A stretch of DNA of 64,000 nucleotides from Candidatus Colwellbacteria bacterium CG10_big_fil_rev_8_21_14_0_10_42_22 (GTDB taxonomy: Bacteria; Patescibacteriota; Minisyncoccia; UBA6257; Colwellbacteraceae), in assembly GCA_002773725.1 (NCBI GenBank), contig PFAH01000008.1, positions 2,654 through 66,653 of the forward strand, given 5' to 3'. Of the stretch, positions 7,879-61,624 are shown piece after piece; position 1 is the stretch's first letter, and every line of letters starts with the position of its first letter. Made by a program: the position numbers and the translations under genes. The notes beneath the pieces were generated by a model, which saw only the letters and a list, made by a program, of their open reading frames with translations, was not told where the DNA came from and made no database searches.

Positions 7879-8331
7879 ATGGATTATCTAACTAAGAAAA
7901 AATTAGCCGAACTTAAAGAAGAATTAGAAACCCTTAAAACAGAAGGGCGTAAATCTATTGCAGAGAATCTTAAGACGGCGAAAGAAATGGGCGATTTGTC
8001 TGAAAATGCAGAATATATTGAAGCTAGGGAACAGCAACAGAGAACTGAAAAGAAAATTTCCGAACTAGAACAGATGGTGCGTAATGCTGTTGTTATCGGT
8101 GTGCGCAAAAAACACGATGAGGTTGAAGTGGGCTCAACGGTTGCAGTTGAGCGTGATGGAGAGAAGTTCATTTTCCATATAGTTGGAAGCAATGAGGCAA
8201 AACCAGCAGAAGGATTCATCTCAAACGAATCTCCTTTAGGAGAAGCTCTTCTTGGACACAAAGAGGGGGAAGTTGTTGATTTTAAATCTCCTCGGGGGAA
8301 AGTTAAGTATAAGATTAATAAAATAGATTAA
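7879..8331 (+). CDS. greA: transcription elongation factor GreA
   Basis: The ATG at 7879 gives MDYLTKKKLAELKEELETLKTEGRKSIAENLKTAKEMGDLSENAEYIEARE, the GreA coiled-coil with the acidic tip. The C-terminal FKBP-like domain is present. The ORF track starts at a TTG at 7858. Confidence 0.9.
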   Translation: MDYLTKKKLAELKEELETLKTEGRKSIAENLKTAKEMGDLSENAEYIEAREQQQRTEKKISELEQMVRNAVVIGVRKKHDEVEVGSTVAVERDGEKFIFHIVGSNEAKPAEGFISNESPLGEALLGHKEGEVVDFKSPRGKVKYKINKID

Positions 8332-8355
8332 TTTTTTAGAGTTCTAAAAATAGAA

Positions 8356-8385
8356 TGACCCCCGTCGCTGTGGCGAAGGGGGTCA
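8356..8385. terminator. GC-rich hairpin GACCCCC-n14-GGGGGTC between convergent genes; T-run follows on the minus strand
   Basis: Read directly. On the minus strand the stem is followed by TCTATTTTTAG, so it probably terminates the 8948-to-8403 minus-strand cassette. It may also serve greA. Confidence 0.6.
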
Positions 8386-8402
8386 TTCGTCAGCGAAAGG
8401 GG

Positions 8403-8639
8403 TCAGGTGTTATCGAAGAGCAAGGGAAGGAATGTCATCATCGAGAGGATGGCCGTGACGATCCAGGCCAACACGCTCAAAATGTCGAGTGTCCTCCACG
8501 CCCAAGCATTCCAACCCCATTCTTCCGTTGTATTGGAAGCGAAGCCGGTGGCTAGGGCAAAGATGGCCACGCAGACCGCGATGAGAAGAAACTCCCACCA
8601 CGGATCAAACTCTTCCCTGTTCTTGCTAGACCAGGTCAA
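8403..8639 (-). CDS. hypothetical small membrane protein (78 aa, two hydrophobic helices) in a GC-rich insert
   Basis: ATG preceded by AAAGAGGTG. It lies 28 nt downstream of the 92-aa gene and is followed by the hairpin terminator at 8356-8385. Helices FLLIAVCVAIFALATGF and ILSVLAWIVTAILSMMTFLPLLF. Confidence 0.55.
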   Translation of the reverse strand: MTWSSKNREEFDPWWEFLLIAVCVAIFALATGFASNTTEEWGWNAWAWRTLDILSVLAWIVTAILSMMTFLPLLFDNT

Positions 8640-8669
8640 GGTGCACCTCTTTTTATCCGAGTGGTCTTA

Positions 8670-8948
8670 TCAAGAACGAATGGCGTAAGCCATGCCGTTC
8701 CGAATTTCCCAGCCATACTTCGTGTCCTTGCCGAAAGATGGCCAATGGATGATGTGCCCGTTGGGGTCGCGCCTGAAACGTCCCTTGAAACGCCCCCGAA
8801 TGGGTGTTGCCCCCTCCCACGCCTCATGAGCTTCGATGGTATGCGCGAAATCACCTCCCCCGAGCCTGCGGAGCATGTCTTTGAACTCTGGAGACACGCC
8901 CTTTCCTCTCCCGACGGGTTCTGCGCTGTTTCGTATGGTGTACGCCAC
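8670..8948 (-). CDS. hypothetical protein (92 aa) in a GC-rich insert
   Basis: GTG start preceded by GGGGAGG with a 6-nt spacer and a perfect TATAAT about 20 nt further up (plus coordinates 8967-8972, minus strand). GC is clearly higher than the flanks. Sequence MAYTIRNSAEPVGRGKG...GHIIHWPSFGKD; no family recognised. Confidence 0.55.
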   Translation of the reverse strand: MAYTIRNSAEPVGRGKGVSPEFKDMLRRLGGGDFAHTIEAHEAWEGATPIRGRFKGRFRRDPNGHIIHWPSFGKDTKYGWEIRNGMAYAIRS

Positions 8949-9048
8949 TTATCACCTCCCCGTGATATTATATGGGTAACATATCGAGTTTGGGGTTGTC
9001 CAGTTCTCGCTTTGGGGGAAGGATATGATATTCTAATAACTAGTCAGA

Positions 9049-10392
9049 ATGTTAAGTAGAATTCTCAAAGATAAATTCGGGAGATTAGAAAAGCTTAGAA
9101 AAGCTGGTGTTAATCCCTTTCCTGCAAGAGTTAAGAAGCATTTATCTATTAGTTCGGTATTAAAAGATTTTCCAAGCTTGAGTAAGCACCAAAGACCCAT
9201 CTATGTAGTGGGTAGGATTATATCTCGTCGAGATCAGGGAAAACTTTTGTTTATTGATTTATATGATGGAACAGACAAAATCCAAATTTTTGCAGCTAAA
9301 AAGGAATTGTCTAAATTTGATCTCTGGAAAGACACCCTAGACATAGGAGATTTTATAGGCGTAAAGGGAATTTGTTTCAAAACTAAAAAAGGTGAAAAGA
9401 GTATTCGCGCTAAGAGTTTAGATATACTTGCTAAGAGCTTGAGGCCCTTGCCGGATACATGGTTTGGCTTGAAGGATGTAGAAGAGCGCTTTCGTAAACG
9501 CTATTTAGACATGTTGATGAACTTGGAAGTTAAGGAGTCATTTGATAAGCGCTCTAAAATTGTTAGAGAAATGAGAGAGTTTCTTTGGAAAAACGACTTT
9601 ATAGAAGTAGAAACACCCATGCTCCAGCCAATTCCTGGCGGTGCCCTAGCGGAGCCCTTTAAAACGCACCACAACGCCCTCGGGCAAGATTTCTATTTAA
9701 GAATTGCTCCGGAGCTTTACTTGAAACGTTTACTTGTGGGTGGATTCAATAAAGTTTTTGAGATGGGAAGAATTTTTAGAAACGAGGGTATGGATAGGGA
9801 GCACAATCCTGAATTTACAATGCTTGAACTTTACTGGGCTTATCAGGATTACGAAGGGCTTATCAAGTTTACTGAAAAACTACTGAATAATGTTTTGGGT
9901 AAGAAGAAGTGGGAAAAAATTACTTATGCGGAGGCCTTTAAGAAATATGCTAAAAAGGATCTATCTAAGATAAAAGACAAGGCCTCCGTAGATGATGTTT
10001 TCAAAAGAGAGGTGCGCTCCAAGCTCATTAAGCCAACTATTTTGTGCGATCACCCGAAAGCGATTTCACCTTTGGCTAAATCTAAAATAGATAATCCTGA
10101 AATCACAGAGCGCTTTCAGTTCATCATAGGTGGAGTAGAGATAGCTAATGGATTTAGTGAACTTAATGATCCAATAGATCAAAAAGAAAGGATGGAATAT
10201 CAAGAATCTCTGTTTCGTAAGGGAAACAAAGAGGTAACCCGTATGGACAAAGATTTTTTGGAAGCCCTTGAATACGGTATGCCTCCAGCTGCTGGGTTGG
10301 GTGTTGGTATAGATCGTCTTGTGGTTATCGCGACAAATAGAGATTCGGTAAAGGAGTCGATTATATTCCCAACATTAAAAAGTAAAAAATAA
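9049..10392 (+). CDS. lysS: lysyl-tRNA synthetase (class II)
   Basis: 447 aa with an anticodon-binding OB fold N-terminus. Class II motifs include FRNEGMDREHNPEFTMLELY (motif 2) and GGVEIANGFSELNDP...GLGVGIDRLVV (motif 3). Confidence 0.95.
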   Translation: MLSRILKDKFGRLEKLRKAGVNPFPARVKKHLSISSVLKDFPSLSKHQRPIYVVGRIISRRDQGKLLFIDLYDGTDKIQIFAAKKELSKFDLWKDTLDIGDFIGVKGICFKTKKGEKSIRAKSLDILAKSLRPLPDTWFGLKDVEERFRKRYLDMLMNLEVKESFDKRSKIVREMREFLWKNDFIEVETPMLQPIPGGALAEPFKTHHNALGQDFYLRIAPELYLKRLLVGGFNKVFEMGRIFRNEGMDREHNPEFTMLELYWAYQDYEGLIKFTEKLLNNVLGKKKWEKITYAEAFKKYAKKDLSKIKDKASVDDVFKREVRSKLIKPTILCDHPKAISPLAKSKIDNPEITERFQFIIGGVEIANGFSELNDPIDQKERMEYQESLFRKGNKEVTRMDKDFLEALEYGMPPAAGLGVGIDRLVVIATNRDSVKESIIFPTLKSKK

Positions 10393-14153: not shown

Positions 14154-14453
14154 ATGAAAGAGCTTTTTTGGACAAGGCATGCAAAAGACAAGATGAATCA
14201 TTGGCGTCTTAGTGAATCGCGAGTAAGGCGAGTGATTAAGTCATATGACAGGATAGAAGAGGGGGTTGCCGAGGATACGATTGCCTTGATGCAAAGAGCC
14301 GGAACGACTAAAAATAAATATGAAATTTGGGTGATGGTGGCTGACAAGGATAATCAGAGAAGAGTGGTTTCAGCATGGAGATATCCAGGCATCACCATTC
14401 CCGGAGAACCTTTGCCGGAAGAGATCATAAAAGAGTTTAGGGCTATTTTTTAG
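14154..14453 (+). CDS. DUF4258-like small protein (RelE/ParE-superfamily toxin-like fold)
   Basis: 99 aa; FWTRHAKDKMNHWRLSESRVRRVIKSYDRIEEGVAEDTIALMQRAG...EIWVMVADKDNQRRVVSAWRYPG follows the DUF4258 pattern (T.HA...M...I....V..VI.......E......I.L.......hVVv......ViTvy.P). Confidence 0.5.
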   Translation: MKELFWTRHAKDKMNHWRLSESRVRRVIKSYDRIEEGVAEDTIALMQRAGTTKNKYEIWVMVADKDNQRRVVSAWRYPGITIPGEPLPEEIIKEFRAIF

Positions 14454-14574
14454 AGATGATACTTATTAACATTGTGTTTGGTGCTCTGGACTGATACAAA
14501 GAGATTAGGAGTCGCAACTAAGAGGGGTTGCAACTTTTTTATTTGTACCTAGACGCAACTAGGAGGTTCAAACC

Positions 14575-14811
14575 GTGAGTAGCGTTGTCGACTACAAGAG
14601 TTGGGAGGATCAGGGTTCATTGCCTGCTTCTCAAATTCAGTCAGGCGACTCGATCAGTGGCCCCTATGGCAAGATCGTTGAATACACTGAGTGTATTCCC
14701 GGCGGCATTCCGAAGATTCGGATTACGTTCGAAGACGGCACACAACAACTCGTCGATAAGGGCCTTATGTTCCATGTTTGGAGACAGCCGTACAGGCGAG
14801 GCGATTGGTAA
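14575..14811 (+). CDS. hypothetical small protein (78 aa) in a GC-rich insert
   Basis: GTG start with AGGAGG 7 nt upstream. Followed by a long GC-rich hairpin plus TTTTT (14873-14938). Composition differs from the flanks. Confidence 0.5.
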   Translation: MSSVVDYKSWEDQGSLPASQIQSGDSISGPYGKIVEYTECIPGGIPKIRITFEDGTQQLVDKGLMFHVWRQPYRRGDW

Positions 14812-14872
14812 TGAATGGACTCGTGGATTTCGGCTCCCAAGAGGTGCGACCCTCAAAAACTTGCCCCGGCGC

Positions 14873-14938
14873 GCGAGAACCCCGACACGATATGTGTGTC
14901 AGGCAACTCGTGCATCATGCCGGGGTTCTCGCTTTTTC
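14873..14938 (+). terminator. intrinsic terminator (GCGAGAACCCCG ... CGGGGTTCTCGC TTTTT)
   Basis: 12-bp perfect stem read directly, with a structured ~36-nt loop containing GACAC/GTGTC, then a T5 run. Confidence 0.6.
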
Positions 14939-15014
14939 GAGTGAGAAAGCTTAGAATCTTCTTTGTAGACCCCCTATATAAAGGCAACTAGGGGGGATTT
15001 CTGCGTTTAACTCC

Positions 15015-17033
15015 ATGTTGAAACTGATATCAGAAAAAAAACCGGCGGGGGACCAACCCAAAGCCATAGATGCCCTGGTTAAAGGATTAAAAAAAGGTCT
15101 TAAGCACCAAACTCTTTTAGGCGTAACCGGTTCAGGTAAAACCTTCACTATCGCCAATGTTATAAACGAAGTGAAAAGACCAACCCTTGTTATCGCACAT
15201 AATAAAACTTTGGCTGCTCAGCTTTGTAATGAATTTAGAGAGCTGTTTCCCGAAAACCAAGTCCACTATTTTGTTTCATACTACGATTACTACCAACCAG
15301 AAGCATATCTTCCCAATACAAATACATATATAGCCAAAGAGGCGCATACAAATGACGAGATAGACCGCCTACGTCACGCTGCCACCACGGCTCTTTTGAC
15401 TCAAAAAGATGTAATTATTGTGGCATCCGTCTCGGCCATTTATGGCCTCGGCACGCCGGAGCTTTATAGAGAAAACATTCTTCACTTTAAAATAGGCGAT
15501 CAGATATCCCGCGAAGAATTGGCGAGGCGTTTAATCAGGGTACAGTTCACGCGTACCAACGCCAACCTTAATCGAGGTTCTTTTCGTTTGCGAGGAGATA
15601 ACTGGGAGATAATGTCTCCTCACGACGACGTTGTTTACAACTTCGTTATGGATAAAGGCAAGATATCAAAGATATATATAGTAGATCCGACTATCGGCTT
15701 CAGTTACGAAAAGACGCCAAGCACGGACGAAGTTTATATATCACCCGTTAAACACTACATTACTTTAGATAGTCAGATAGAGGTAGCTCTTAAAAATATC
15801 GAACAAGAAATGAAGGAAAGAATCAAATATTTTGAAAAAGAAGGCAAACTTTTGGAAGCAGAGATTATAGAACGTCGCACCAAGGGCGATATGGCGATGA
15901 TTCGGGAAGTGGGATATTGCAATGGCATTGAGAATTATTCAAGACATTTAGATGGCAGAGCTCCGGGTGAGCCCCCCGCCACTTTACTTGATTACTTTCC
16001 CGAGGATTTCTTGCTGGTTATAGATGAGTCGCACGTAACGGTGCCACAAATCAGAGGTATGTTTGAGGGAGATGCTTCTAGAAAAAGGACTTTGATAGAA
16101 CATGGTTTTCGCCTCCCGTCAGCTTCTGATAACCGCCCCCTTAAATTTGGTGAATTCGAAAAAAGAGTAGGACAAACAATATACACATCGGCTACGCCGA
16201 GTGTCTATGAGGCAGAACACAGTCAAAAAACGGTTGAGCAGGTTATTAGACCCACTGGTCTAGTTGATCCAATCATCACTATCCGTCCGGCTAAGGGTCA
16301 GATAGACGATCTTATACCTCGCATCAAAGAGCGGATAGAAAAAAGCGAGAGGGTGCTTGTAACGACTTTGACAAAGAAGATGGCAGAGGACCTAAACGAC
16401 TATTTACACGACTTAGGTTTAAAAGTTAATTATTTACACAGCGACGTTGAAACATTGGATAGGATTAGAATTCTGACGGGTCTTAGGAGAGGCGACTTTG
16501 ATGTTTTAGTTGGAGTAAACCTGCTTAGGGAAGGATTAGATTTGCCAGAAGTATCTTTAGTGGCAATCCTAGATGCTGACAAAGAGGGATTCTTACGTAG
16601 CGAAACAGCGCTTATCCAGACAATTGGTCGGGCGGCCAGAAACGTAAACGGGGAAGTACTGATTTATGCAGACCAAATAACTGGTTCGGTAAAAAGGGCT
16701 GTTAGCGAAACAGAGAGGAGAAGAAAGATCCAAATAGCTTATAACAAAAAGCATGGCATTACTCCCCAAACAATTGTTAGAAACATTCAAGATATTTTAC
16801 CAATTGAGAACCGCGAAAGAGAGGCAAAAATAGGTGAAATACTTGAACTTGAGGTAGGTGCGTTACCCAAAACAACCAAGCGTATTGAAGAGATGATTAG
16901 AGACAAAGAACGAGAAATGAAGGAAGTAGCTAAAAAACTGGATTTTGAGTTGGCAGCTATCTTAAGAGATGAGCTGGTGATCCTTAAAGAAAAAATGAGT
17001 CATAAGAACAAAAAGAAACATGGCTCCGCCTAA
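15015..17033 (+). CDS. uvrB: excinuclease ABC subunit B
   Basis: 672 aa; Walker A GVTGSGKTF, helicase motifs, the beta-hairpin region and the C-terminal UVR coiled-coil ELAAILRDELVILKEKM. Confidence 0.95.
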   Translation: MLKLISEKKPAGDQPKAIDALVKGLKKGLKHQTLLGVTGSGKTFTIANVINEVKRPTLVIAHNKTLAAQLCNEFRELFPENQVHYFVSYYDYYQPEAYLPNTNTYIAKEAHTNDEIDRLRHAATTALLTQKDVIIVASVSAIYGLGTPELYRENILHFKIGDQISREELARRLIRVQFTRTNANLNRGSFRLRGDNWEIMSPHDDVVYNFVMDKGKISKIYIVDPTIGFSYEKTPSTDEVYISPVKHYITLDSQIEVALKNIEQEMKERIKYFEKEGKLLEAEIIERRTKGDMAMIREVGYCNGIENYSRHLDGRAPGEPPATLLDYFPEDFLLVIDESHVTVPQIRGMFEGDASRKRTLIEHGFRLPSASDNRPLKFGEFEKRVGQTIYTSATPSVYEAEHSQKTVEQVIRPTGLVDPIITIRPAKGQIDDLIPRIKERIEKSERVLVTTLTKKMAEDLNDYLHDLGLKVNYLHSDVETLDRIRILTGLRRGDFDVLVGVNLLREGLDLPEVSLVAILDADKEGFLRSETALIQTIGRAARNVNGEVLIYADQITGSVKRAVSETERRRKIQIAYNKKHGITPQTIVRNIQDILPIENREREAKIGEILELEVGALPKTTKRIEEMIRDKEREMKEVAKKLDFELAAILRDELVILKEKMSHKNKKKHGSA

Positions 17034-22842: not shown

Positions 22843-23299
22843 AAAGAATATTGAAGGACAAATAGGATTTCCAGGTATAGAAGAAGAGGAGACAAAAGAA
22901 CAGATTGAAAAAAGAAAAATAGGGGCAAAAAGAAGAAGCGAATTAATCGGTACGAGAATTTTCCCATTTGGGGAAGTTAATGAAGGCGGAGCACAAGCAT
23001 TACAAGACGGTTATATAGTAACCACAGAGGTGAGACGATGGGGTGGAAAACTTCTTGATAGTGTCGAAGACCAGTTGACCAGGGTTACTGGTAAGGAAAG
23101 AGGTCCTATGCCTCCGGACGAAAGTAGTTGGCCCAATGTTATACCCGAAACAAGAAAATTCAATTTGGACAGAATAGTGGATGAAAGACGTCGGTCTTTA
23201 ATCAAAAAGTATGTTGAAGAAGGCGATATAGAGAGGGCAGGAGATTTAAAAAGAAAAAGAAGAGAGGGTAGAGCCAAACAAGAGAAAAGAAGGTCTTGA
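22835..23299 (+). CDS. hypothetical highly charged protein
   Basis: 154 aa with an 8-nt overlap with the upstream gene. Lys/Arg/Glu-rich tail. No family recognised. Confidence 0.45.
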   Translation: MPRKNIEGQIGFPGIEEEETKEQIEKRKIGAKRRSELIGTRIFPFGEVNEGGAQALQDGYIVTTEVRRWGGKLLDSVEDQLTRVTGKERGPMPPDESSWPNVIPETRKFNLDRIVDERRRSLIKKYVEEGDIERAGDLKRKRREGRAKQEKRRS

Positions 23300-23350
23300 T
23301 TTGACGTTTTTCCTATAATACGATGTCTCCACGCTAGGTAAGGAGATACG

Positions 23351-23881
23351 TTGACATATCAAGTTCTGGAGAAAGGGCCTTGGCTCTTCAGAGTGGCGGA
23401 TGACGGCTCGCACGCTTGGGGTATCTACGCCGGCATCGTCCGGTTTTACTTGCTCCCCCAGCCAGGTCGGCTCCATGCCGATTGGAGTCGTCGGAAAACC
23501 ATGAAGGGTTATCCGGGTTTTGTTCCGGATGAGCACTTCTGGCCCTATTTGCAGGAAATCAACAAGTTGATGCTGGATAGACGGAAGCGAATTCCGTTCT
23601 CGCCTGGTCGGCGGGACTTTGCGAATCGTCGCAAGGTTTCCATGGAATTTTCGAATGGCAGAGTGGACTTCTTCATCCATCCCATGGGTGAGGATTGCTG
23701 GGTTCACATCTACTCCGGAGAGAGGGTGGAAGCGGTCCTTCTCTTCACTCGAGGGATTATGGGCGAAGTAGAACGCGACCTTTCCAAGTCCTCTGGCCAC
23801 ACATCGGAAAATATGGAGACCTACGTCCGGCTTTCCGCCGATCAATTGATGCATTGGCAAGCCAGCTTCGCTCATAGTTGA
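23351..23881 (+). CDS. hypothetical protein (176 aa) in a GC-rich insert
   Basis: TTG start with AAGGAG 6 nt upstream. TTGATT/TTGACG and TATAAT elements lie just upstream (23297-23325). A hairpin terminator sits at 23905-23945. Composition differs from the flanks. The antisense 209-aa ORF is judged spurious. Confidence 0.5.
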   Translation: MTYQVLEKGPWLFRVADDGSHAWGIYAGIVRFYLLPQPGRLHADWSRRKTMKGYPGFVPDEHFWPYLQEINKLMLDRRKRIPFSPGRRDFANRRKVSMEFSNGRVDFFIHPMGEDCWVHIYSGERVEAVLLFTRGIMGEVERDLSKSSGHTSENMETYVRLSADQLMHWQASFAHS

Positions 23882-23904
23882 TCGTGCTACATGAGGGGGC
23901 GATG

Positions 23905-23948
23905 ACGCGAGGGGGTGAAGCGTCAGGACCCCCTTTCGTCATTTTCAA
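23905..23948 (+). terminator. intrinsic terminator (AGGGGG...CCCCCT plus a T-rich tail)
   Basis: Read directly: GACGCGAGGGGGTGAAGCGTCAGGACCCCCTTTCGTCATTTTC. Confidence 0.55.
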
Positions 23949-23991
23949 ATAATTAATAACCTACTTTTTAAAGAGTCATTTTTATGGCACC

Positions 23992-54114: not shown

Positions 54115-54189
54115 ATCTTTTCATACTTTTTTGATGTGGCCTTTATTAAATCTTCTTTATATTAATGACGAAAATAGGGGATGGGTCTT

Positions 54190-54250
54190 AAAAACAGAAA
54201 CGCCCACCAAAGATAGCGAGCAGAATCTGCTCACGTCCCCAGTGGGCGCG
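54190..54250 (-). terminator. intrinsic terminator for the minus-strand small-gene operon (CGCCCAC...GTGGGCG with inner GAGCAG/CTGCTC; U-run on the minus strand)
   Basis: Read directly: plus strand AAAAACAGAAACGCCCACCAAAGATAGCGAGCAGAATCTGCTCACGTCCCCAGTGGGCG. On the minus-strand transcript the stem is followed by UUUCUGUUUUU. Confidence 0.6.
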
Positions 54251-54263
54251 TGATGAGGTGTTC

Positions 54264-54605
54264 CTAGTTTTCGTCCTCATCTTCAGCTTCAGAGAACCAC
54301 TTCTCGTTTTCGGGGGGCGCAATTCGCACCTCGACGACGTAGGAGCCCCCACAATCGTCGAGTTCCTGTCCACAGAACGGACAGATGTACTCGAGCAATC
54401 CATTGACCCGAAGATCCCCTCCTGGTGCTCTGCCCCCCGCATTGCATTCCCATTCCGTAGAAGAGTCAGCAATGGATGCACCGATTGCCTTGAAGTGTTC
54501 CTCGACAATCTCAATACAGGCACAGACATCCGGATCGATGAGGTCTGCCGAGCATTCGAATTTTTCGAAAGCCCTGCCAACGAAGTCCAAGTCGATGGGT
54601 TTCAT
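54264..54605 (-). CDS. hypothetical acidic protein with Cys pairs (zinc-ribbon-like), GC-rich island gene 5
   Basis: 113 aa; CSADLIDPDVCAC...EWECNAGG...ICPFCGQELDDCGG and the tail EAEDEDEN. AGAAGGGA lies upstream of the ATG. Last gene before the terminator. Confidence 0.5.
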   Translation of the reverse strand: MKPIDLDFVGRAFEKFECSADLIDPDVCACIEIVEEHFKAIGASIADSSTEWECNAGGRAPGGDLRVNGLLEYICPFCGQELDDCGGSYVVEVRIAPPENEKWFSEAEDEDEN

Positions 54606-54620
54606 ACTTCTTGTTCCCTT

Positions 54621-54989
54621 CTACGCAATCCAAAGACCGTGCAGACCGGATAGTTCACGCCTGAACACTCCGCCCCTCTTCTCCACATGCTCGCGAAACA
54701 TACGAAAAACGTTGTCCACGTTCTCCGCGTCGTACCACCCATCGTATAGACCATCATCATCGAGGGCGATGTAAATGAGTCCTTTTGGTTGGAGAGAAGC
54801 ATCGTGCTGGGAAATGACCTCCTCACGTTCTTCGTCCCAGAGAAGAATGTGACCCATGTTGGGCAGAAACCCCACTCTTTTCCCGAGGATTCTTGGATGG
54901 GATTTCTCCAAGTTGGCCAATGCCGTTCCGCCGGGGTGGTGTCCCTCTGTCCATCCATACCTCGCCCTATAGAGCCAAAGCGTTTCCAT
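54621..54989 (-). CDS. hypothetical protein, GC-rich island gene 4
   Basis: 122 aa; AAGGGG 5 nt before the ATG, and 11 nt after the stop of gene 3. The alternative frame 54602..54994 looks compositionally like noise. Confidence 0.45.
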   Translation of the reverse strand: METLWLYRARYGWTEGHHPGGTALANLEKSHPRILGKRVGFLPNMGHILLWDEEREEVISQHDASLQPKGLIYIALDDDGLYDGWYDAENVDNVFRMFREHVEKRGGVFRRELSGLHGLWIA

Positions 54990-55000
54990 ATCAACCCCTT

Positions 55001-55339
55001 CTAGGTACCGATGGTGTGAATACCGCGTTGCCCCGGATACTCTGGGGCCTCGACGATGGTTCGTGTCCTCACATACGCGTCGTAGTTGTCTTCATAAACC
55101 CAACCCAGGATTATTCCATTCAGGTTGTTGTCTTCGAAGAAAACTCGAATCTTATGACCAACATGTGGCCATGCTCCGGTGTGGTAGTTGAAGTGCTCAC
55201 CCTCCATCCATGAAAGAAGCCCTCCATTGGAAAGATCGAATTGGTGAATCTGGTAAGATTCGTTCAAACGAACTTCTCCCACCATATTCGTGACATCGAC
55301 CTCGATAACCACACCAGCATGCCAATCGCGATATGTCAT
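55001..55339 (-). CDS. hypothetical protein, GC-rich island gene 3
   Basis: 112 aa from the ATG at 55339 (MTYRDWHAGVVIEV...). The ATG overlaps the stop of gene 2 in an ATGA motif, indicating translational coupling. Confidence 0.45.
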   Translation of the reverse strand: MTYRDWHAGVVIEVDVTNMVGEVRLNESYQIHQFDLSNGGLLSWMEGEHFNYHTGAWPHVGHKIRVFFEDNNLNGIILGWVYEDNYDAYVRTRTIVEAPEYPGQRGIHTIGT

Positions 55340-55500
55340 GATCTGTGTCCTCCGGTTGTTATGAAGCGACGAAATCTCGGATTGTGGCGGTTGTCCCTGC
55401 ACTCAAGTCGAGCGGGCGCAACTCGCATCTTCTTGTCTTCACGATGCAGAAGTTTGGGAGAGCCCAACGCTTGTGCAACATGTCTCCAGAAATCGTTCAT
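55336..55500 (-). CDS. hypothetical small basic protein, GC-rich island gene 2
   Basis: 54 aa from the ATG at 55500, with GAGGAAG 7 nt upstream. The ORF track extends to a GTG at 55548, which has no ribosome-binding site. Arg/His-rich. Confidence 0.4.
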   Translation of the reverse strand: MNDFWRHVAQALGSPKLLHREDKKMRVAPARLECRDNRHNPRFRRFITTGGHRS

Positions 55501-55609
55501 AGTTCTCTTCCTCAGTTGTGAAAGAGCGAAGCCCTTTCTTTTCCCCACGGGGCTTATAGGTCTTGAATATGCAATATTTATAAGAGTCAGTCAACTTCGT
55601 TAGAGTTAA

Positions 55610-55625
55610 GCTATCTCAAGATAGC
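55610..55625. promoter_or_regulatory. near-perfect palindrome GCTATCT-CA-AGATAGC in the intergenic region upstream of the gene 2-5 operon
   Basis: Read directly. A TTGACT box (minus strand, plus coordinates 55589-55594) lies next to it. Candidate operator. Confidence 0.4.
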
Positions 55626-55746
55626 CATCGGATGCCAAAGGGCACTTTATCTCTAACGGGGTCAATTTTAATACACCCAAAAATGCATGAACCCCACCTT
55701 TGTGAAATCGGGCGGGATTCACGCAGATGGGGTTGTTGGGCTCGCT

Positions 55747-55983
55747 TTAGACGCGCCCTCGGATTCTGGGAAAAGAGAAGCATCGGTCGTGCTGATGGCA
55801 CCTCTCGGCGCTGTTGTAGATAGAAAGGCGAATTTCGCAGCCCTTCTCCGCGCAAATGCGTCCCGTGGGATACACCTTGTGTTTGCGGTTGCTTCCGCCG
55901 ATTCTTCTCGCAATTGTCGGATTGCGACGCGTAGTCGCTCCTCCAAAATTGCCTCCCACTCCCTCGTTCTCAAAGAGCGGCAT
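55747..55983 (-). CDS. hypothetical zinc-finger-like small protein, GC-rich island gene 1
   Basis: 78 aa; GGGAGG with a 6-nt spacer before the ATG. Cys/His pattern CAEKGC-x12-CHQHDRC. It is the first gene downstream of the divergent promoter region. Confidence 0.5.
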   Translation of the reverse strand: MPLFENEGVGGNFGGATTRRNPTIARRIGGSNRKHKVYPTGRICAEKGCEIRLSIYNSAERCHQHDRCFSFPRIRGRV

Positions 55984-56009
55984 CTTTTTCCTCCCTATCC
56001 CGATGCCTT

Positions 56010-56126
56010 AGACCCCTAAAATACAATTTTTAATTATTAAAAGTCAATATTCGTATTTGACTAGCGAAATAAATTGTGGCAATTTCTATATGTACATTGA
56101 AGTCTAAGTTGAAGGGAGCGTTCATC
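56010..56126. promoter_or_regulatory. divergent control region between the minus-strand and plus-strand small-gene operons
   Basis: AT-rich, with AGTCAA (56042-56047) and TTGACT (56057-56062) forming an inverted pair of -35-like boxes 9 nt apart (AGTCAA-ATATTCGTATT-TGACT). Genes with good ribosome-binding sites start on both sides. Confidence 0.45.
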
Positions 56127-56405
56127 GTGCAAGACATTCCCGAAAACGTGGAACTCGGAAGTCAGCTCTATTGGGAGTATCGACTTCGCAACGAACTGAA
56201 CTCCAGATGGAATCGTGTTGCCAATCATCTCGTGGCTTTGAAGAAGCGGATGTATGAACAGAGATGTGATGACGGATGCATTCTCGGGATTTGGCACTGG
56301 CTTGTGAATCAGTGGGGAGAGTCCCTTCTGAGAAGGCGTAATGCCTGCGAGGAACGCATTCGCATTTTGGAGCACCAGATTTGGATTAAAGGAGAACGAG
56401 AATGA
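56127..56405 (+). CDS. hypothetical protein, GC-rich island plus-strand gene 1
   Basis: 93 aa from the GTG at 56127, with AAGGGAG 8 nt upstream. The ORF track ATG at 56076 lacks a ribosome-binding site. The stop overlaps the next ATG (ATGA). Confidence 0.4.
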   Translation: MQDIPENVELGSQLYWEYRLRNELNSRWNRVANHLVALKKRMYEQRCDDGCILGIWHWLVNQWGESLLRRRNACEERIRILEHQIWIKGERE

Positions 56406-56650
56406 ATGGTATGAGCATCATTCAGCGCATTGACACCGCCTTCATCCTTATAGCAAGCGTTGTCGGGTTTGTAGTTGGCGTTGTTGCGGGTTTGCTTACT
56501 GGTCTTTGTGTCCTTGTCGGCGTTGTTTTCGGTTTTGATTGGCTCCTAGAAATCAATCCGAGATATTTGGTTGCCGTTTCGGTCTTTGTTGTTTGCCTGA
56601 CGGTAATCGTGCTGGCGAGGATTCGATTGAAGAAAGAAATGCTTCTGTGA
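56402..56650 (+). CDS. hypothetical small membrane protein, GC-rich island plus-strand gene 2
   Basis: 82 aa; AAGGAG 7 nt upstream; hydrophobic stretches FILIASVVGFVVGVVAGLLTGLCVLVGVVFGF and YLVAVSVFVVCLTVIVLA. Confidence 0.5.
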   Translation: MNGMSIIQRIDTAFILIASVVGFVVGVVAGLLTGLCVLVGVVFGFDWLLEINPRYLVAVSVFVVCLTVIVLARIRLKKEMLL

Positions 56651-56886
56651 TGGAAAATCCTTCCGAGCGAACGGCGTTGGCTGTCGTCATCGGTATCGCT
56701 GTCACACTGGTGTTGGTCTGGTTTGCCTTCCGTGTGGGAGACCCCCAGTGGTTCATTCTCATCCTCGCTTTTCCTATCGGTGTCGTCTCCTTCCTCGCTC
56801 TCGTTTTCAGCTTGGTGTGCTGTCTTCAGAAGGGGATTTGCACAGCGATCATCGAAGACAAGCGCCGGCAAAAGCCGGACAGGTAA
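56650..56886 (+). CDS. hypothetical small membrane protein, GC-rich island plus-strand gene 3
   Basis: 78 aa from the ATG at 56650, overlapping the previous stop (TGATG). Two TM helices and a CC pair. The terminator follows immediately. Confidence 0.45.
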   Translation: MENPSERTALAVVIGIAVTLVLVWFAFRVGDPQWFILILAFPIGVVSFLALVFSLVCCLQKGICTAIIEDKRRQKPDR

Positions 56887-56887
56887 T

Positions 56888-56946
56888 ACCCGCACATCGA
56901 GACGCAAAACTCGCGCGTCTTAGGGGGAGATGTGCGGGTTTTGTGC
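56888..56946 (+). terminator. intrinsic terminator (ACCCGCACATC ... GATGTGCGGGT TTTGTGCTTC) with an inner palindrome GAGACGC/GCGTCT
   Basis: Read directly; an 11-bp outer stem followed by a T-rich tract. Confidence 0.65.
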
Positions 56947-56971
56947 TTCTTGGGTGTATGATTAGAGCAGT

Positions 56972-57169
56972 GTGAAGTTAAAAGAATTTCAAAAACTAGA
57001 GAACGAGGATAAGCTCGAAGAGATTTTTAAATCCGTCGAGAAGACGAGAAAGTATTTCAAAGTGACACTCATCGTCGCCTTAGTTGTTATCGTCTTACCA
57101 CTTTTAGTTTTGCCAATGATAATCGGGCAATTCTTAAATACTTACAATTTAAACGTATTAGGATTATAG
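56972..57169 (+). CDS. hypothetical small membrane protein
   Basis: 65 aa; GTG start; low GC; one TM helix. Confidence 0.35.
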   Translation: MKLKEFQKLENEDKLEEIFKSVEKTRKYFKVTLIVALVVIVLPLLVLPMIIGQFLNTYNLNVLGL

Positions 57170-57594: not shown

Positions 57595-57990
57595 ATGGAA
57601 ACATACGTTTGGTATCAGCAATTAATTCGCCCAGATTGGGCACCGCCAGCTTGGGTTTTTGGACCTGTTTGGAGTGTTTTATATTTATTAATATTTATTT
57701 CCTTTGGAGCAGTTCTTTTAAAGGTTTTTCAAAAGAAATTACCAGCAAAGATTGCCCTACCATTTGTCTTGAATATTGTTTTTAATTTGGCCTTTACGCC
57801 CATTCAGTTTGGGCTACAAAATAATATTTTAGCCGCCCTAGATATCTTGTTTGTTTTGGGCACTATGGTTTGGATGTTTAAGTTCATTTGGCCCCACATG
57901 CGTTGGGTGATTTATGTAAACATCCCTTATTTTCTTTGGGTCTCTTTCGCTACTATCCTACAGCTCACTATCACTTATCTAAATCTATAA
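57595..57990 (+). CDS. tspO: TspO/MBR family tryptophan-rich sensory protein
   Basis: 131 aa; five TM helices; W-rich N-terminus WYQQLIRPDWAPPAWVFGPVWSVLYLL. Confidence 0.8.
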   Translation: METYVWYQQLIRPDWAPPAWVFGPVWSVLYLLIFISFGAVLLKVFQKKLPAKIALPFVLNIVFNLAFTPIQFGLQNNILAALDILFVLGTMVWMFKFIWPHMRWVIYVNIPYFLWVSFATILQLTITYLNL

Positions 57991-58037
57991 AAACGAAGAA
58001 GACCACCGCGGGGCGAGGGAAGACGATGGTCTTCTTC
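57990..58037 (-). terminator. intrinsic terminator (11-bp stem GAAGAAGACCA/TGGTCTTCTTC; U-run on the minus strand)
   Basis: Read directly. On the minus-strand RNA the stem is followed by GUUUUUA. It sits between convergent tspO and the 58583-to-58065 gene. Confidence 0.6.
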
Positions 58038-58064
58038 GGGCCGTGATGGTCTTTTGATGTGGTT

Positions 58065-58583
58065 CTAGCAGACGGGTATGGGGGCAATCAATCGCCCACG
58101 CGACCGCCTGCAGTCGGCGATGTCCCAGACCTCCACGAGATCCAGATCGCCGTTCCCTCCGTCGCCGTGCTCGAACGAGCGGTGTTCCAGCTCCGGAACC
58201 TCTTCGATTGCTCTTGAGCAACAGACGCTCGCGAACACGGAAGGCATCATGAGATCAGCGATCTCATGATCGCGGAGGCGGAGGAGCAGATCCTCCAAGT
58301 CCGAGACCGCTTCGTCCCAGGCGGTCTCTTCGCACCAGACCGGCGCGAATCCAAATCGGCGATCGTACCGGTGCGGACGGTACTCATAGAGCACCGTCAC
58401 GCCATCAGGCGGGATGCAGGGCATGGTGCCCTTTTCCACCCACGGCTCGCACTCGCGGAAAATCACTTCCCCCCCGTTACGCAGGGGAGCGATGACTTTC
58501 CGACCTCGCTGGGTCGGTTCGATGATGGCAAACCACTCACCATCATCACCTTGAAATGCTTCAAAGATCGTTCCCCCAAACAT
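58065..58583 (-). CDS. hypothetical protein (172 aa), GC-rich
   Basis: ATG at 58583 with AAGGAGGG 4 nt upstream. A TTGACA-17-TACAAA promoter lies on the minus strand (plus coordinates 58622-58650). The terminator is downstream. No family recognised. Confidence 0.5.
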   Translation of the reverse strand: MFGGTIFEAFQGDDGEWFAIIEPTQRGRKVIAPLRNGGEVIFRECEPWVEKGTMPCIPPDGVTVLYEYRPHRYDRRFGFAPVWCEETAWDEAVSDLEDLLLRLRDHEIADLMMPSVFASVCCSRAIEEVPELEHRSFEHGDGGNGDLDLVEVWDIADCRRSRGRLIAPIPVC

Positions 58584-58644
58584 GGTCCCTCCTTCTTGTC
58601 GCTTCAAGGACCGTTGCGGTGTTTGTACCATAAAACAGAATAAA

Positions 58645-58700
58645 TGTCAATAAAGTGGATACTTTCCACTCTTGATTAAATTAATTTTCTATTGTATAAA
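58645..58700. promoter_or_regulatory. back-to-back divergent promoters: minus-strand TTGACA (58645-58650) for the 172-aa gene and plus-strand TTGATT-17-TATAAA (58672-58700) for rnpB
   Basis: Hexamers read directly. A small hairpin GTGGA-TACTT-TCCAC (58655-58669) sits between the two -35 boxes. Confidence 0.5.
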
Positions 58701-60880: not shown

Positions 60881-61417
60881 ATGCTAAAGAAATTGCCCAA
60901 CTGGTTGGGCTACGCGAGAATGGTCCTGACCCCTGTGGTTATGGGCTTCATCTACTACGGTGACAACGAATTCTGGACGGGGTTCGTTTTCGCCATCGTT
61001 GTGGCGACAGATGGCCTTGATGGCCCCATCGCCCGAGCAACACATTCGACCAGCCAATTTGGCATCATGTTGGACACGCTGGCAGACAAGTTCTTGATTG
61101 CCGGTTGTGTCCTCGCGTTGGTAGCCAAGGACCCAGTTTGGCTTTGGGCGGGATTCATCATCATCGACCGTGATTTCTTGGTGATGACGCTGAAGGCAAA
61201 CGTAGGCGGGGGCTTCATCAAGGCATCCAACTTGGGAAAGATCAAGATGGGCCTTCAATCGGTGGCTATCTACCTGGTCATCAATCCTTGGCCTTTCAAT
61301 GGTGCCACCGGCTGGAACTCTCCTGGTGGGGCGGTGATGGCGTTGGCTCTTTGGTTCACCCTCTTCTCGGCTTGGGACTACTACCACAAGTACACCCGTT
61401 TCTTGCGGTGGAATTAA
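60881..61417 (+). CDS. pgsA: CDP-alcohol phosphatidyltransferase (phosphatidylglycerophosphate synthase-like)
   Basis: 178 aa; D-G-x2-A-R ... G-x3-D-x3-D signature in ATDGLDGPIARATHSTSQFGIMLDTLADKF. GC is clearly higher than the neighbouring genes. Confidence 0.75.
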   Translation: MLKKLPNWLGYARMVLTPVVMGFIYYGDNEFWTGFVFAIVVATDGLDGPIARATHSTSQFGIMLDTLADKFLIAGCVLALVAKDPVWLWAGFIIIDRDFLVMTLKANVGGGFIKASNLGKIKMGLQSVAIYLVINPWPFNGATGWNSPGGAVMALALWFTLFSAWDYYHKYTRFLRWN

Positions 61418-61550: not shown

Positions 61551-61624
61551 TGCCGGATCGTCTAGTGGTAGGACGTCTGTTTCTGGAACAGAAAACCGGG
61601 GTTCGAGTCCCTGTCCGGCAGCCA
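61551..61624 (+). tRNA. tRNA-Gln (anticodon CTG), CCA encoded
   Basis: Hand-folded: acceptor TGCCGGA/TCCGGCA (U1-A72); anticodon stem TCTGT/ACAGA with loop TTCTGGA; T arm CGGGG-TTCGAGT-CCCTG; discriminator G then CCA. Confidence 0.8.

Follow-up and report, generated by a model that had tools for sequence, protein, structure and literature searches.

Background

Free-standing homing endonuclease genes of phages, such as the seg and mob genes of T4, are small and self-contained, carry their own expression signals and reside between conserved genes. Holins possess a highly charged hydrophilic C-terminal tail and are encoded beside endolysin or other phage lysis genes, and minimal Cys-less HNH endonucleases of 85-100 amino acids (aa; PF01844/PF13395) occur as stand-alone small genes in association with mobile or defence DNA. 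Here we compare these systems with an insert between the genes greA and lysS in a metagenome-assembled genome (MAG) of an ultra-small groundwater bacterium, Candidatus Colwellbacteria (candidate phyla radiation, CPR, or Patescibacteria), from the CG10 sample set. The window, i.e. the whole stretch of DNA that was analysed, comprises 64,000 nucleotides (nt), and positions are given in its coordinates unless another contig is named. The insert is rich in guanine and cytosine (GC) and holds two small open reading frames (ORFs) on the minus strand: ORF1, of 92 aa, and ORF2, of 78 aa. It is an ordinary islet of horizontally transferred DNA, of which the mildly novel part is the conserved subfamily of 'half-HNH' mini-proteins that ORF1 belongs to.

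The insert resembles the T4 seg/mob-type genes in that it is self-contained, lies between conserved genes and is absent from close relatives; unlike those genes it has no intact nuclease or DNA-recognition domain, and its host is a cellular CPR genome, in which its mobility would be putative. ORF1 shares with the minimal HNH endonucleases a comparable size, the organisation as a stand-alone small gene and the association with mobile or defence DNA, and its residues 39-92 align with their N-terminal half (P0021, P0033 and WP_011655404 of Roseobacter plasmid pTB1). However, it stops after the GWEI strand, without the DH pair, the GGSD, NLQAL and N..K motifs, the helix and a Pfam HNH match, and it has an extra N-terminal extension of 38 residues. 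As a short membrane protein in the form of a helical hairpin, ORF2 resembles the holins and the transmembrane (TM) effectors known from defence systems (S_4TM, PycTM), but it has neither a charged C-terminal tail nor a lysin or cyclase partner.

An insertion in the greA-lysS spacer

The spacer between greA (7879-8331, plus strand; NCBIfam GreA, E 4e-47) and lysS (9049-10392, plus strand; NCBIfam LysS, E 1e-167) measures 717 base pairs (bp). Calculated over segments of 200 nt, the GC fraction of its core (8400-8999) is 0.53-0.59 and that of the flanks 0.33-0.45. The neighbourhood of the insert has a GC content of 38-40% and the window as a whole has a GC fraction of 0.418, the stretch 8341-9040 being one of nine in which it amounts to about 0.50 or more. 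A GC-rich two-ORF unit on the minus strand between these genes had been predicted earlier from the bare sequence, and the GC profile, the identities of the flanks and the sequence all confirmed it.

The arrangement of greA and lysS was compared over 47 loci encoding relatives of LysS. In 31 of them lysS is immediately preceded by greA, on the same strand and with a gap of -1 to 221 bp, and the insert is absent; the adjacency check that had been proposed together with the prediction thus came out in its favour. The nearest relative (L004, from assembly JAHJZF01; GreA ~91% and LysS 81% identical) has a spacer of 200 bp and 40% GC that shows no alignment with the insert. The alignment with L004 resumes left of 8325 and right of 9024, and the shared sequence is limited to the end of greA and to a conserved segment of ~25 nt immediately upstream of lysS (TGATATTCTAATAACTAGT.AGA; 9024-9048, plus strand). 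Based on the GC profile, the L004 alignment and the spacer lengths of the 31 loci, the insert was delimited approximately to 8332-9023, with its genes on the minus strand. It is not a chimera or an assembly artefact, because it was found 100% identical, with both junctions spanned, in three further independent assemblies (four in total). We conclude that the insert at greA-lysS is a lineage-specific insertion, and that the 717-bp spacer carries foreign DNA by composition as well as by its translation signals. Homologues with housekeeping roles, or conservation of the insert in relatives, would have made the unit less worthy of attention, and neither was encountered.

As best explanation of the whole, we consider it probable, though by no means certain, that a mini-cassette was horizontally acquired into the greA-lysS spacer of one Colwellbacteria lineage. 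The L004 spacer holds greA's own intrinsic terminator, and in the window the insert stands in its place; the insertion would thus have replaced this terminator and would have left the lysS promoter region intact.

Expression signals of the minus-strand unit

At the consensus level the insert reads as a self-contained minus-strand transcription unit, with a TATAAT box, two ORFs that are each led by a Shine-Dalgarno (SD) sequence, and an intrinsic terminator. The hexamer, a candidate -10 element (8972-8967), is perfect, as had been noted; it was placed about 20 nt upstream of GGGGAGG in the original prediction, but the actual distances are 5 nt to GGGGAGG and 18 nt to the GTG start codon. The succession of GGGGAGG, 6 nt and GTG (at 8948) ahead of ORF1 is present as described, the complete SD sequence being GGGGAGGTGAT (8951-8961), with GGGGAGGTGATAA preceding the GTG. 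The membrane gene ORF2 was recovered as well, although it starts with TTG and not ATG, and 30 nt instead of 28 nt after the stop of ORF1; this gap contains the SD sequence AAAGAGGTG (8644-8652), 4 nt before the TTG. The predicted GACCCCC/GGGGGTC hairpin with its U-run proved to be a hairpin of 15 bp (8388-8353) followed by UCUAUUUUU (8352-8342); it folds at -30.2 kcal/mol (z = -6.5), and none of 200 shuffles was as stable. Together with a stop codon inside ACCTGACCCC and a second GACCCCC unit, hairpin and U-run constitute a conserved 3' module of the cassette (8342-8408, minus strand) that is homologous to the 3' end of a cassette on contig L064 (see below).

Convincing terminal inverted repeats or target-site duplications were not found at the ends of the insert, and there is no integrase among the called genes within 10 kb of it. 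In the comparison with integron cassettes the conserved 3' module is a simple hairpin plus U-run, in which no obvious GTTRRRY core was seen by reading (no formal attC model was run).

The 5' arm of the terminator is tandemly duplicated within 8353-8412 (TGACCCCTTTCGC / TGACCCCCTTCGC), with the stop codon of ORF2 in the first arm. Since the 5' arm is duplicated and the 3' arm single, two alternative hairpins are possible; in this region the minimum free energy structure is unlike the centroid structure, and the two-unit layout is kept in L064.

The translation signals of the cassette differ from those of the host. A GGAGG, AGGAG or GAGGT motif occurs within 20 nt of the start in only one of 50 long host genes, whereas both cassette ORFs have a strong SD sequence. 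A TATAAT-like hexamer (at least 5 of 6 positions) was found within 45 nt upstream of 28 of the 50 host genes, and half of these hexamers end 10 nt or less before the start codon; the position of the cassette's TATAAT fits this host style. The rarity of SD sequences, combined with the frequent occurrence of TATAAT-like hexamers 0-20 nt before the start, suggests that the mRNAs of the host organism may be leaderless or have very short leaders.

ORF1 is related to minimal HNH endonucleases

ORF1 (8670-8948, minus strand, GTG start; GC at third codon positions, GC3, 0.65) was called as a gene in three assemblies, and its sole database copy is the hypothetical protein COT89_02185. A word-indexed protein search returned only the protein itself, no Pfam family was found even at E <= 10, and the searches of NCBIfam, PHROGs and PADLOC gave nothing significant. 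An exhaustive phmmer search against 1.84 billion representatives yielded 16 matches besides ORF1 itself. Thirteen of these were kept: proteins of 60-117 aa that match residues ~39-92 with E-values of 1e-7 to 8e-4. P0002, P0004 (kringle repeats) and P0009 were discarded, as reading of their sequences showed them to be large repetitive proteins with compositional or spurious similarity.

The aligned matches gave the family consensus W..A..vRGKDP.LYR.DpyGN.iykpSYGK.s.MGWeiDHikP.skGGSD...NLQAL....N.sKG, and the C-terminal half of the full-length members matches Pfam HNH and, among PDB structures, the HNH domains of ZRANB3 and Cas9. A profile search recovered 47 family members, some of them annotated as 'HNH endonuclease' or 'McrA', and a tblastn search with ORF1 hit the annotated HNH gene of Roseobacter plasmid pTB1 (E 8e-3). 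Residues W44, R59, D61, G64, K74, G79 and W80 of ORF1 are invariant or nearly so in the family. The shared part, residues 39-92 (8673-8834), corresponds to the pre-catalytic module of the mini-HNH proteins, i.e. one helix and two beta-hairpins, and ends in ...GWEIRNGMAYAIRS without the DH, the N and the helix. In the alignment GWEI-DH-IKP.SKGGSD... of the family is matched by GWEI-RN-GMAYAIRS-stop: ORF1 ends 8 residues after RN, the catalytic His at the position of the D-H pair is missing, and so are the Asn, the Asn/His metal-ligand motif (NLQAL....N..K) and its helix. The AlphaFold2 (AF2) model of ORF1 likewise has no C-terminal helix, and a remnant of the C-terminal half was sought in the other frames downstream of ORF1, none of which encode the missing motifs.

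Both the sequence and the fold of the pre-catalytic part point to common descent with bona fide HNH proteins. By these alignments ORF1 descends, in truncated form, from a rare family of minimal HNH nucleases and lacks the His, Asn and helix that belong to the beta-beta-alpha-metal site, which would make it unable to cut DNA by the HNH mechanism. The earlier statement that neither protein could be placed in a family has thus been overtaken for ORF1, and still applies to ORF2, for which no relatives were recovered.

A second HNH-less offshoot of the mini-HNH family was encountered (P0010, P0038, P0041, P0042, P0048 and P0051). Its members start with MDDRTK.., have GWIIKNTGRKT in the place of GWEIDH and end in long tails rich in Lys, Glu and Asp; they have no Pfam or PHROG match.

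Residues 1-38 of ORF1 (8835-8948) form a lineage-specific N-terminal extension that is covered by no homologue. Residues 1-17 are predicted to be disordered (predicted local distance difference test, pLDDT, < 50), and the rest of the extension is modelled with low confidence. The peptides that had drawn attention initially, MAYTIRNSAEP at the start, GMAYAIRS at the end and GHIIHWPSFGKD, are all present. The echo between the two termini (MAYTIR../MAYAIR., with 5 of 6 residues identical) was reached in 14 of 200,000 protein shuffles, but is only marginal in the DNA itself, where 227 of 5000 shuffles reached it (p ~0.045). Firmer than the echo is a repeat of the SD sequence and the first codons: GGGGAGGTGAT-AAGTG-GCGTACACCATACGAA from 8961 returns as GGGGAGGTGAT-TTC-GCGCATACCAT-CGAA from 8860, 101 nt downstream, and the shared pattern (GGGGAGGTGAT..GCG.A.ACCAT.CGAA) was reached by 3 of 5000 shuffles. 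About ten codons separate the second SD copy from the conserved Trp downstream of it, and the homologues start at this point, which suggests that the extension probably arose by duplication of the translation-start region.

A truncated subfamily that appears to be under selection

The truncated form and its C-terminus (GWEVRDGVAYAI.., GWRVINGGVFAI..) are common to ORF1 and four proteins from metagenomes: P0003 (60 aa), P0005, P0008 (61 aa) and P0014. The C-terminus follows the pattern GW.[IV].[ND]G..A[IS] and recurs in five divergent contigs, and at least two members of the subfamily are encoded on Patescibacteria-like low-GC contigs. The four relatives share with ORF1 the truncated architecture, the C-terminus and the strong SD sequence, but unlike ORF1 they have no N-terminal extension and no two-TM ORF that follows. 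The 87-aa database entry of P0014 (L067, 298-561) extends beyond an in-frame TAG; translated with the standard bacterial code, the protein ends ...WRSEDVV at 66 aa, in line with the other truncated members.

The proportion of nonsynonymous differences (pN) is well below that of synonymous differences (pS), both between the window and L064 (0.31 vs 0.72) and between L067 and L066 (0.25 vs 0.62), and the frame of ORF1 must therefore have been under constraint. The combination of a shared truncated form and a pN far below pS in turn argues for a conserved subfamily and not for sporadic pseudogenes, with the truncated half-HNH form, as judged from these comparisons, under purifying selection in at least five contigs. 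The hypothetical protein COT89_02185 can thereby be placed in a small, as yet unnamed HNH-derived subfamily that lacks the catalytic half and yet appears to be selected, and that is a candidate source of nuclease decoys, inhibitors and small DNA binders.

ORF1 has kept only the pre-catalytic module of helix and beta-hairpins together with the first strand, and would act, if at all, by binding to DNA or to a nuclease partner. Since the truncated form seems to be conserved under purifying selection, we take, with much reserve, a small binding protein to be the most likely product; candidate roles are the binding of DNA and, in nuclease-type conflict systems, that of a decoy or regulator.

The main rival to horizontal acquisition of a cassette with a selected ORF1 is that the insert represents the decaying relic of a selfish HNH gene, in which a homing-endonuclease-like cassette became fixed, the nuclease was lost and the ORFs are now functionless. 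Its architecture is indeed that of a free-standing homing gene, with its own promoter and terminator, a location between conserved genes, a presence/absence pattern among close relatives and an atypical GC content; the nuclease motif is gone from ORF1, so that an intact site-specific nuclease is not encoded, and the N-terminus of ORF1 bears signs of sloppy duplication. Moreover, the insert is invariant among populations and current constraint can therefore not be read from it. A relic is nevertheless unlikely in our view, because independent pseudogenes would not be expected to share a truncated form and a novel C-terminus across five divergent contigs while pN stays well below pS. Both ORFs are in addition intact and preceded by perfect SD sequences, and the full-length relatives (~90 aa) do not possess the additional DNA-recognition domain of homing enzymes.

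ORF2 and the genomic context of the HNH relatives

ORF2 (8403-8639, minus strand, TTG start) would encode a Trp-rich hairpin of two TM segments (TM1 ~16-34, TM2 ~53-75). Both segments have a 19-residue Kyte-Doolittle mean above 1.6 and Trp at their borders, and size and TM content are those of a holin. The GC3 of the frame is 0.72 vs a GC of 0.41 at first codon positions, and it is the only hydrophobic frame in the islet. When the ORF was shuffled, 858 of 20,000 sequences stayed open, and 2 of these 858 had two TM-like segments. The single-sequence AF2 model is all helix (pLDDT 71). We consider ORF2 likely to be a real coding gene on these intrinsic grounds.

The genes encoding full-length mini-HNH proteins were found to adjoin genes for type I restriction-modification (R-M), helix-turn-helix (HTH)/M78, Fic and Cas1/Cas2/Cas9 proteins; one has type I R-M genes on one side and a PIN toxin gene on the other, one closes a three-gene operon beside an integrase and VapE, and one is carried by a conjugative plasmid, after SbcD and an AAA ATPase. 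Truncated relatives either occur singly (P0003) or have small genes of unrelated kind next to them, namely one for an ASCH-domain protein after P0008 and a soluble 151-aa ORF after P0005. P0012 stands alone between housekeeping-type genes. A membrane-protein neighbour was absent in all five of the ORF1 relatives that were looked up, and the pairing of an ORF1-type gene with a membrane gene is unique to the locus in the window.

This context bears on the reading given in the original prediction, namely that a small soluble protein and a small membrane protein form a toxin/immunity, holin-like or abortive-infection pair. As a two-component conflict module, ORF2 would be a membrane-disrupting toxin or holin-like effector and ORF1 its regulator, antitoxin or sensor. 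The two genes are small and co-oriented, are separated by 30 nt and are served by a single promoter and a single terminator, both TM segments of ORF2 are strong, and the full-length relatives of ORF1 reside in defence islands. There are also faint, sub-threshold similarities of ORF2 to S_4TM (E 0.023), Phage_holin_1 (E 0.21; 12.6 bits where the cut-off is 22), CARF_TM and PycTM. However, neither protein passed a curated threshold in any library, with no match above noise in PADLOC, Pfam, NCBIfam or PHROGs, and the pairing is not conserved: P0003 occurs alone, with its stop codon in the 3' module, and P0008, P0005 and P0012 have no membrane partner. ORF2 ends in ...LLFDNT, 3 residues after TM2, and thus has no charged holin tail, and the neighbours of the unit are greA and lysS, with no lysin or phage genes nearby. 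The prediction of such a pair was not upheld, and we regard it as distinctly improbable.

In a side observation, the mini-HNH gene in contigs L060-L063 is the last gene of a conserved operon that also encodes proteins of 410 aa and 328 aa, located beside the integrase and VapE genes. On Roseobacter plasmid pTB1 (L071, 46109-46399) it follows an SbcD-like gene and a gene for an AAA ATPase of 1019 aa, beside a tyrosine recombinase. By their gene content these operons may represent uncharacterised defence systems.

A related cassette in another Patescibacteria locus

The closest homologue of ORF1 is P0003 (50% identical over the shared domain), which is encoded on a Patescibacteria contig (L064/L069) just after the glutamate dehydrogenase (GDH) gene. 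L069 and L004 come from one assembly (JAHJZF01), and the nearest relative, which does not have the greA-lysS insert, therefore has a homologous cassette elsewhere. The P0003 gene is an islet of 0.60 GC in a contig of ~0.46 GC, with the SD sequence AAGGAGGT upstream. The sequence ACC-TGA-CCCC of L064, the second GACCCCC unit, the hairpin and the T-run align with 8408-8342 of the window; the local alignment score of this 3' module is 38, vs 13.4 ± 2.2 for shuffles, and none of 2000 shuffles reached it. Among the fetched loci the pattern of the module was restricted to the window's own copies and to L064, L065, L069 and L070.

The module provides the stop codon of the HNH-like gene in L064 but that of ORF2 in the window, and ~260 bp of ORF2 thus lie between ORF1 and the conserved end of the cassette; the membrane ORF is absent from the L064/L069 cassette though the 3' end is kept. 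The ORF2 segment was either gained in the window lineage or lost in that of L064. We take ORF2 to be a later add-on, i.e. an accreted orphan membrane protein, which would not be an obligate partner of ORF1.

The P0003 cassette is flanked by direct repeats of 62 nt that are 77% identical (L064, 1477-1538 and 1833-1894) and that also occur in L065, L069 and L070. The repeat contains the hairpin CTCCCTAGTGA(C/A)AGGGAG, has no Rfam match and also precedes the next GC-rich gene, an orphan of 217 aa; it might mark the boundary of the cassette, have a regulatory role or have arisen as a duplicated target. It was not found in the window. An empty-site copy of the GDH locus was not found either, as both NCBI MAGs carry the P0003 cassette, unannotated. 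L070 and L064 derive from the same Patescibacteria population and are identical up to a tRNA-Arg (2735-2807), diverging at L064 position 2741. Beyond this tRNA one of the two has genes for an SLFN/AlbA_2 protein and a DNA methylase as well as small ORFs, and the divergence looks like a tRNA-targeted genomic island polymorphism.

Origin of the cassette

On this account, accessory DNA that is GC-rich and SD-bearing would circulate among these Patescibacteria as a common pool, of which the cassettes would form part; this is consistent with the abundant horizontal gene transfer (HGT) reported for this group (PMC12455944). Several points weigh against this account. The phage, plasmid and viral-contig collections gave no matches beyond the HNH relatives that might indicate a donor of the insert: scans of viral contigs with ORF1, ORF2, P0003, the ORF1/P0003 profile and the DNA pattern of the 3' module were all empty, and a BLAST search of phages and plasmids gave only the weak plasmid HNH match to ORF1. 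A metagenome scan with the ORF1/P0003 profile recovered one full-length HNH protein, on a contig very rich in AT. ORF2 has no homologue in the protein database, the metagenome contigs, the viral contigs, the phages or the plasmids, and gene callers left it uncalled in three other assemblies, so that its translation is argued from intrinsic signals. The promoter consists of the -10 hexamer by itself, which a promoter consensus scan did not list because a good -35 is lacking. Finally, the binding or decoy role of ORF1 is a putative one.

A more far-reaching variant holds that the cassettes form an undescribed class of small mobile elements of Patescibacteria, GC-rich and SD-led, in which the module of stop codon and double GACCCCC hairpin would serve both as terminator and as recombination or mobilisation site, the half-HNH core would be a decoy or inhibitor of HNH nucleases or an accessory factor of recombination, and the space between core and module would take up variable cargo, e.g. 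the two-TM ORF. We consider this very improbable.

GC-rich patches in AT-rich genomes are a classic signature of non-coding RNA. That the insert, a GC-rich patch in a low-GC genome with several open frames across it, would be a structured RNA or a chimeric assembly is nonetheless hardly credible, as Rfam gave no match at either the gathering or the E-value threshold, the whole insert folds no better than shuffles (z = -1.35 for the minus and -0.78 for the plus strand), ORF1 has protein homologues with pN < pS, both ORFs show GC3 periodicity, and the junctions are identical in four assemblies; the structured-RNA reading was rejected on the Rfam and folding results.

Acquisition of a foreign mini-cassette thus remains the preferred reading, and the locus presents a case at base-pair resolution of tiny foreign cassettes with non-host translation signals that enter the intergenic spacers of streamlined CPR genomes. 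The finding is a modest one and opens no long-standing question; frequent HGT into Patescibacteria was already known (PMC12455944).

Other islets and genes in the window

Further GC-rich islets (0.50-0.60) are located at 14541-15060, 23261-23960, 54161-56980 and 57921-58700. They carry small ORFs with the strong SD sequences that are rare in host genes, e.g. TAGGAGGT before a 78-aa ORF (14575-14811) and AAGGAGG before an internal ATG (58583) of the ORF at 58065-58631, and some of them have hairpin terminators. Ten proteins of these islets were compared with Pfam and PHROGs and none scored above threshold. From its composition and signals the genome appears to be peppered with foreign mini-cassettes.

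Just upstream of the islet at 14.5 kb a gene for a DUF4258-like protein of 99 aa was found (14154-14453, plus strand; Pfam E 2.4e-4, which is below the cut-off), and a homologue of this gene (L067, 1-273) lies directly upstream of the truncated half-HNH gene P0014. The site downstream of this toxin-like gene may therefore be a recurrent landing site. A host membrane gene for 178 aa (60881-61417), possibly a pgsA/CDP-alcohol phosphatidyltransferase-like gene, has a GC3 of 0.72, vs a host norm of ~0.38, and adjoins a tRNA-Gln (61551-61624); it may be another acquired gene.

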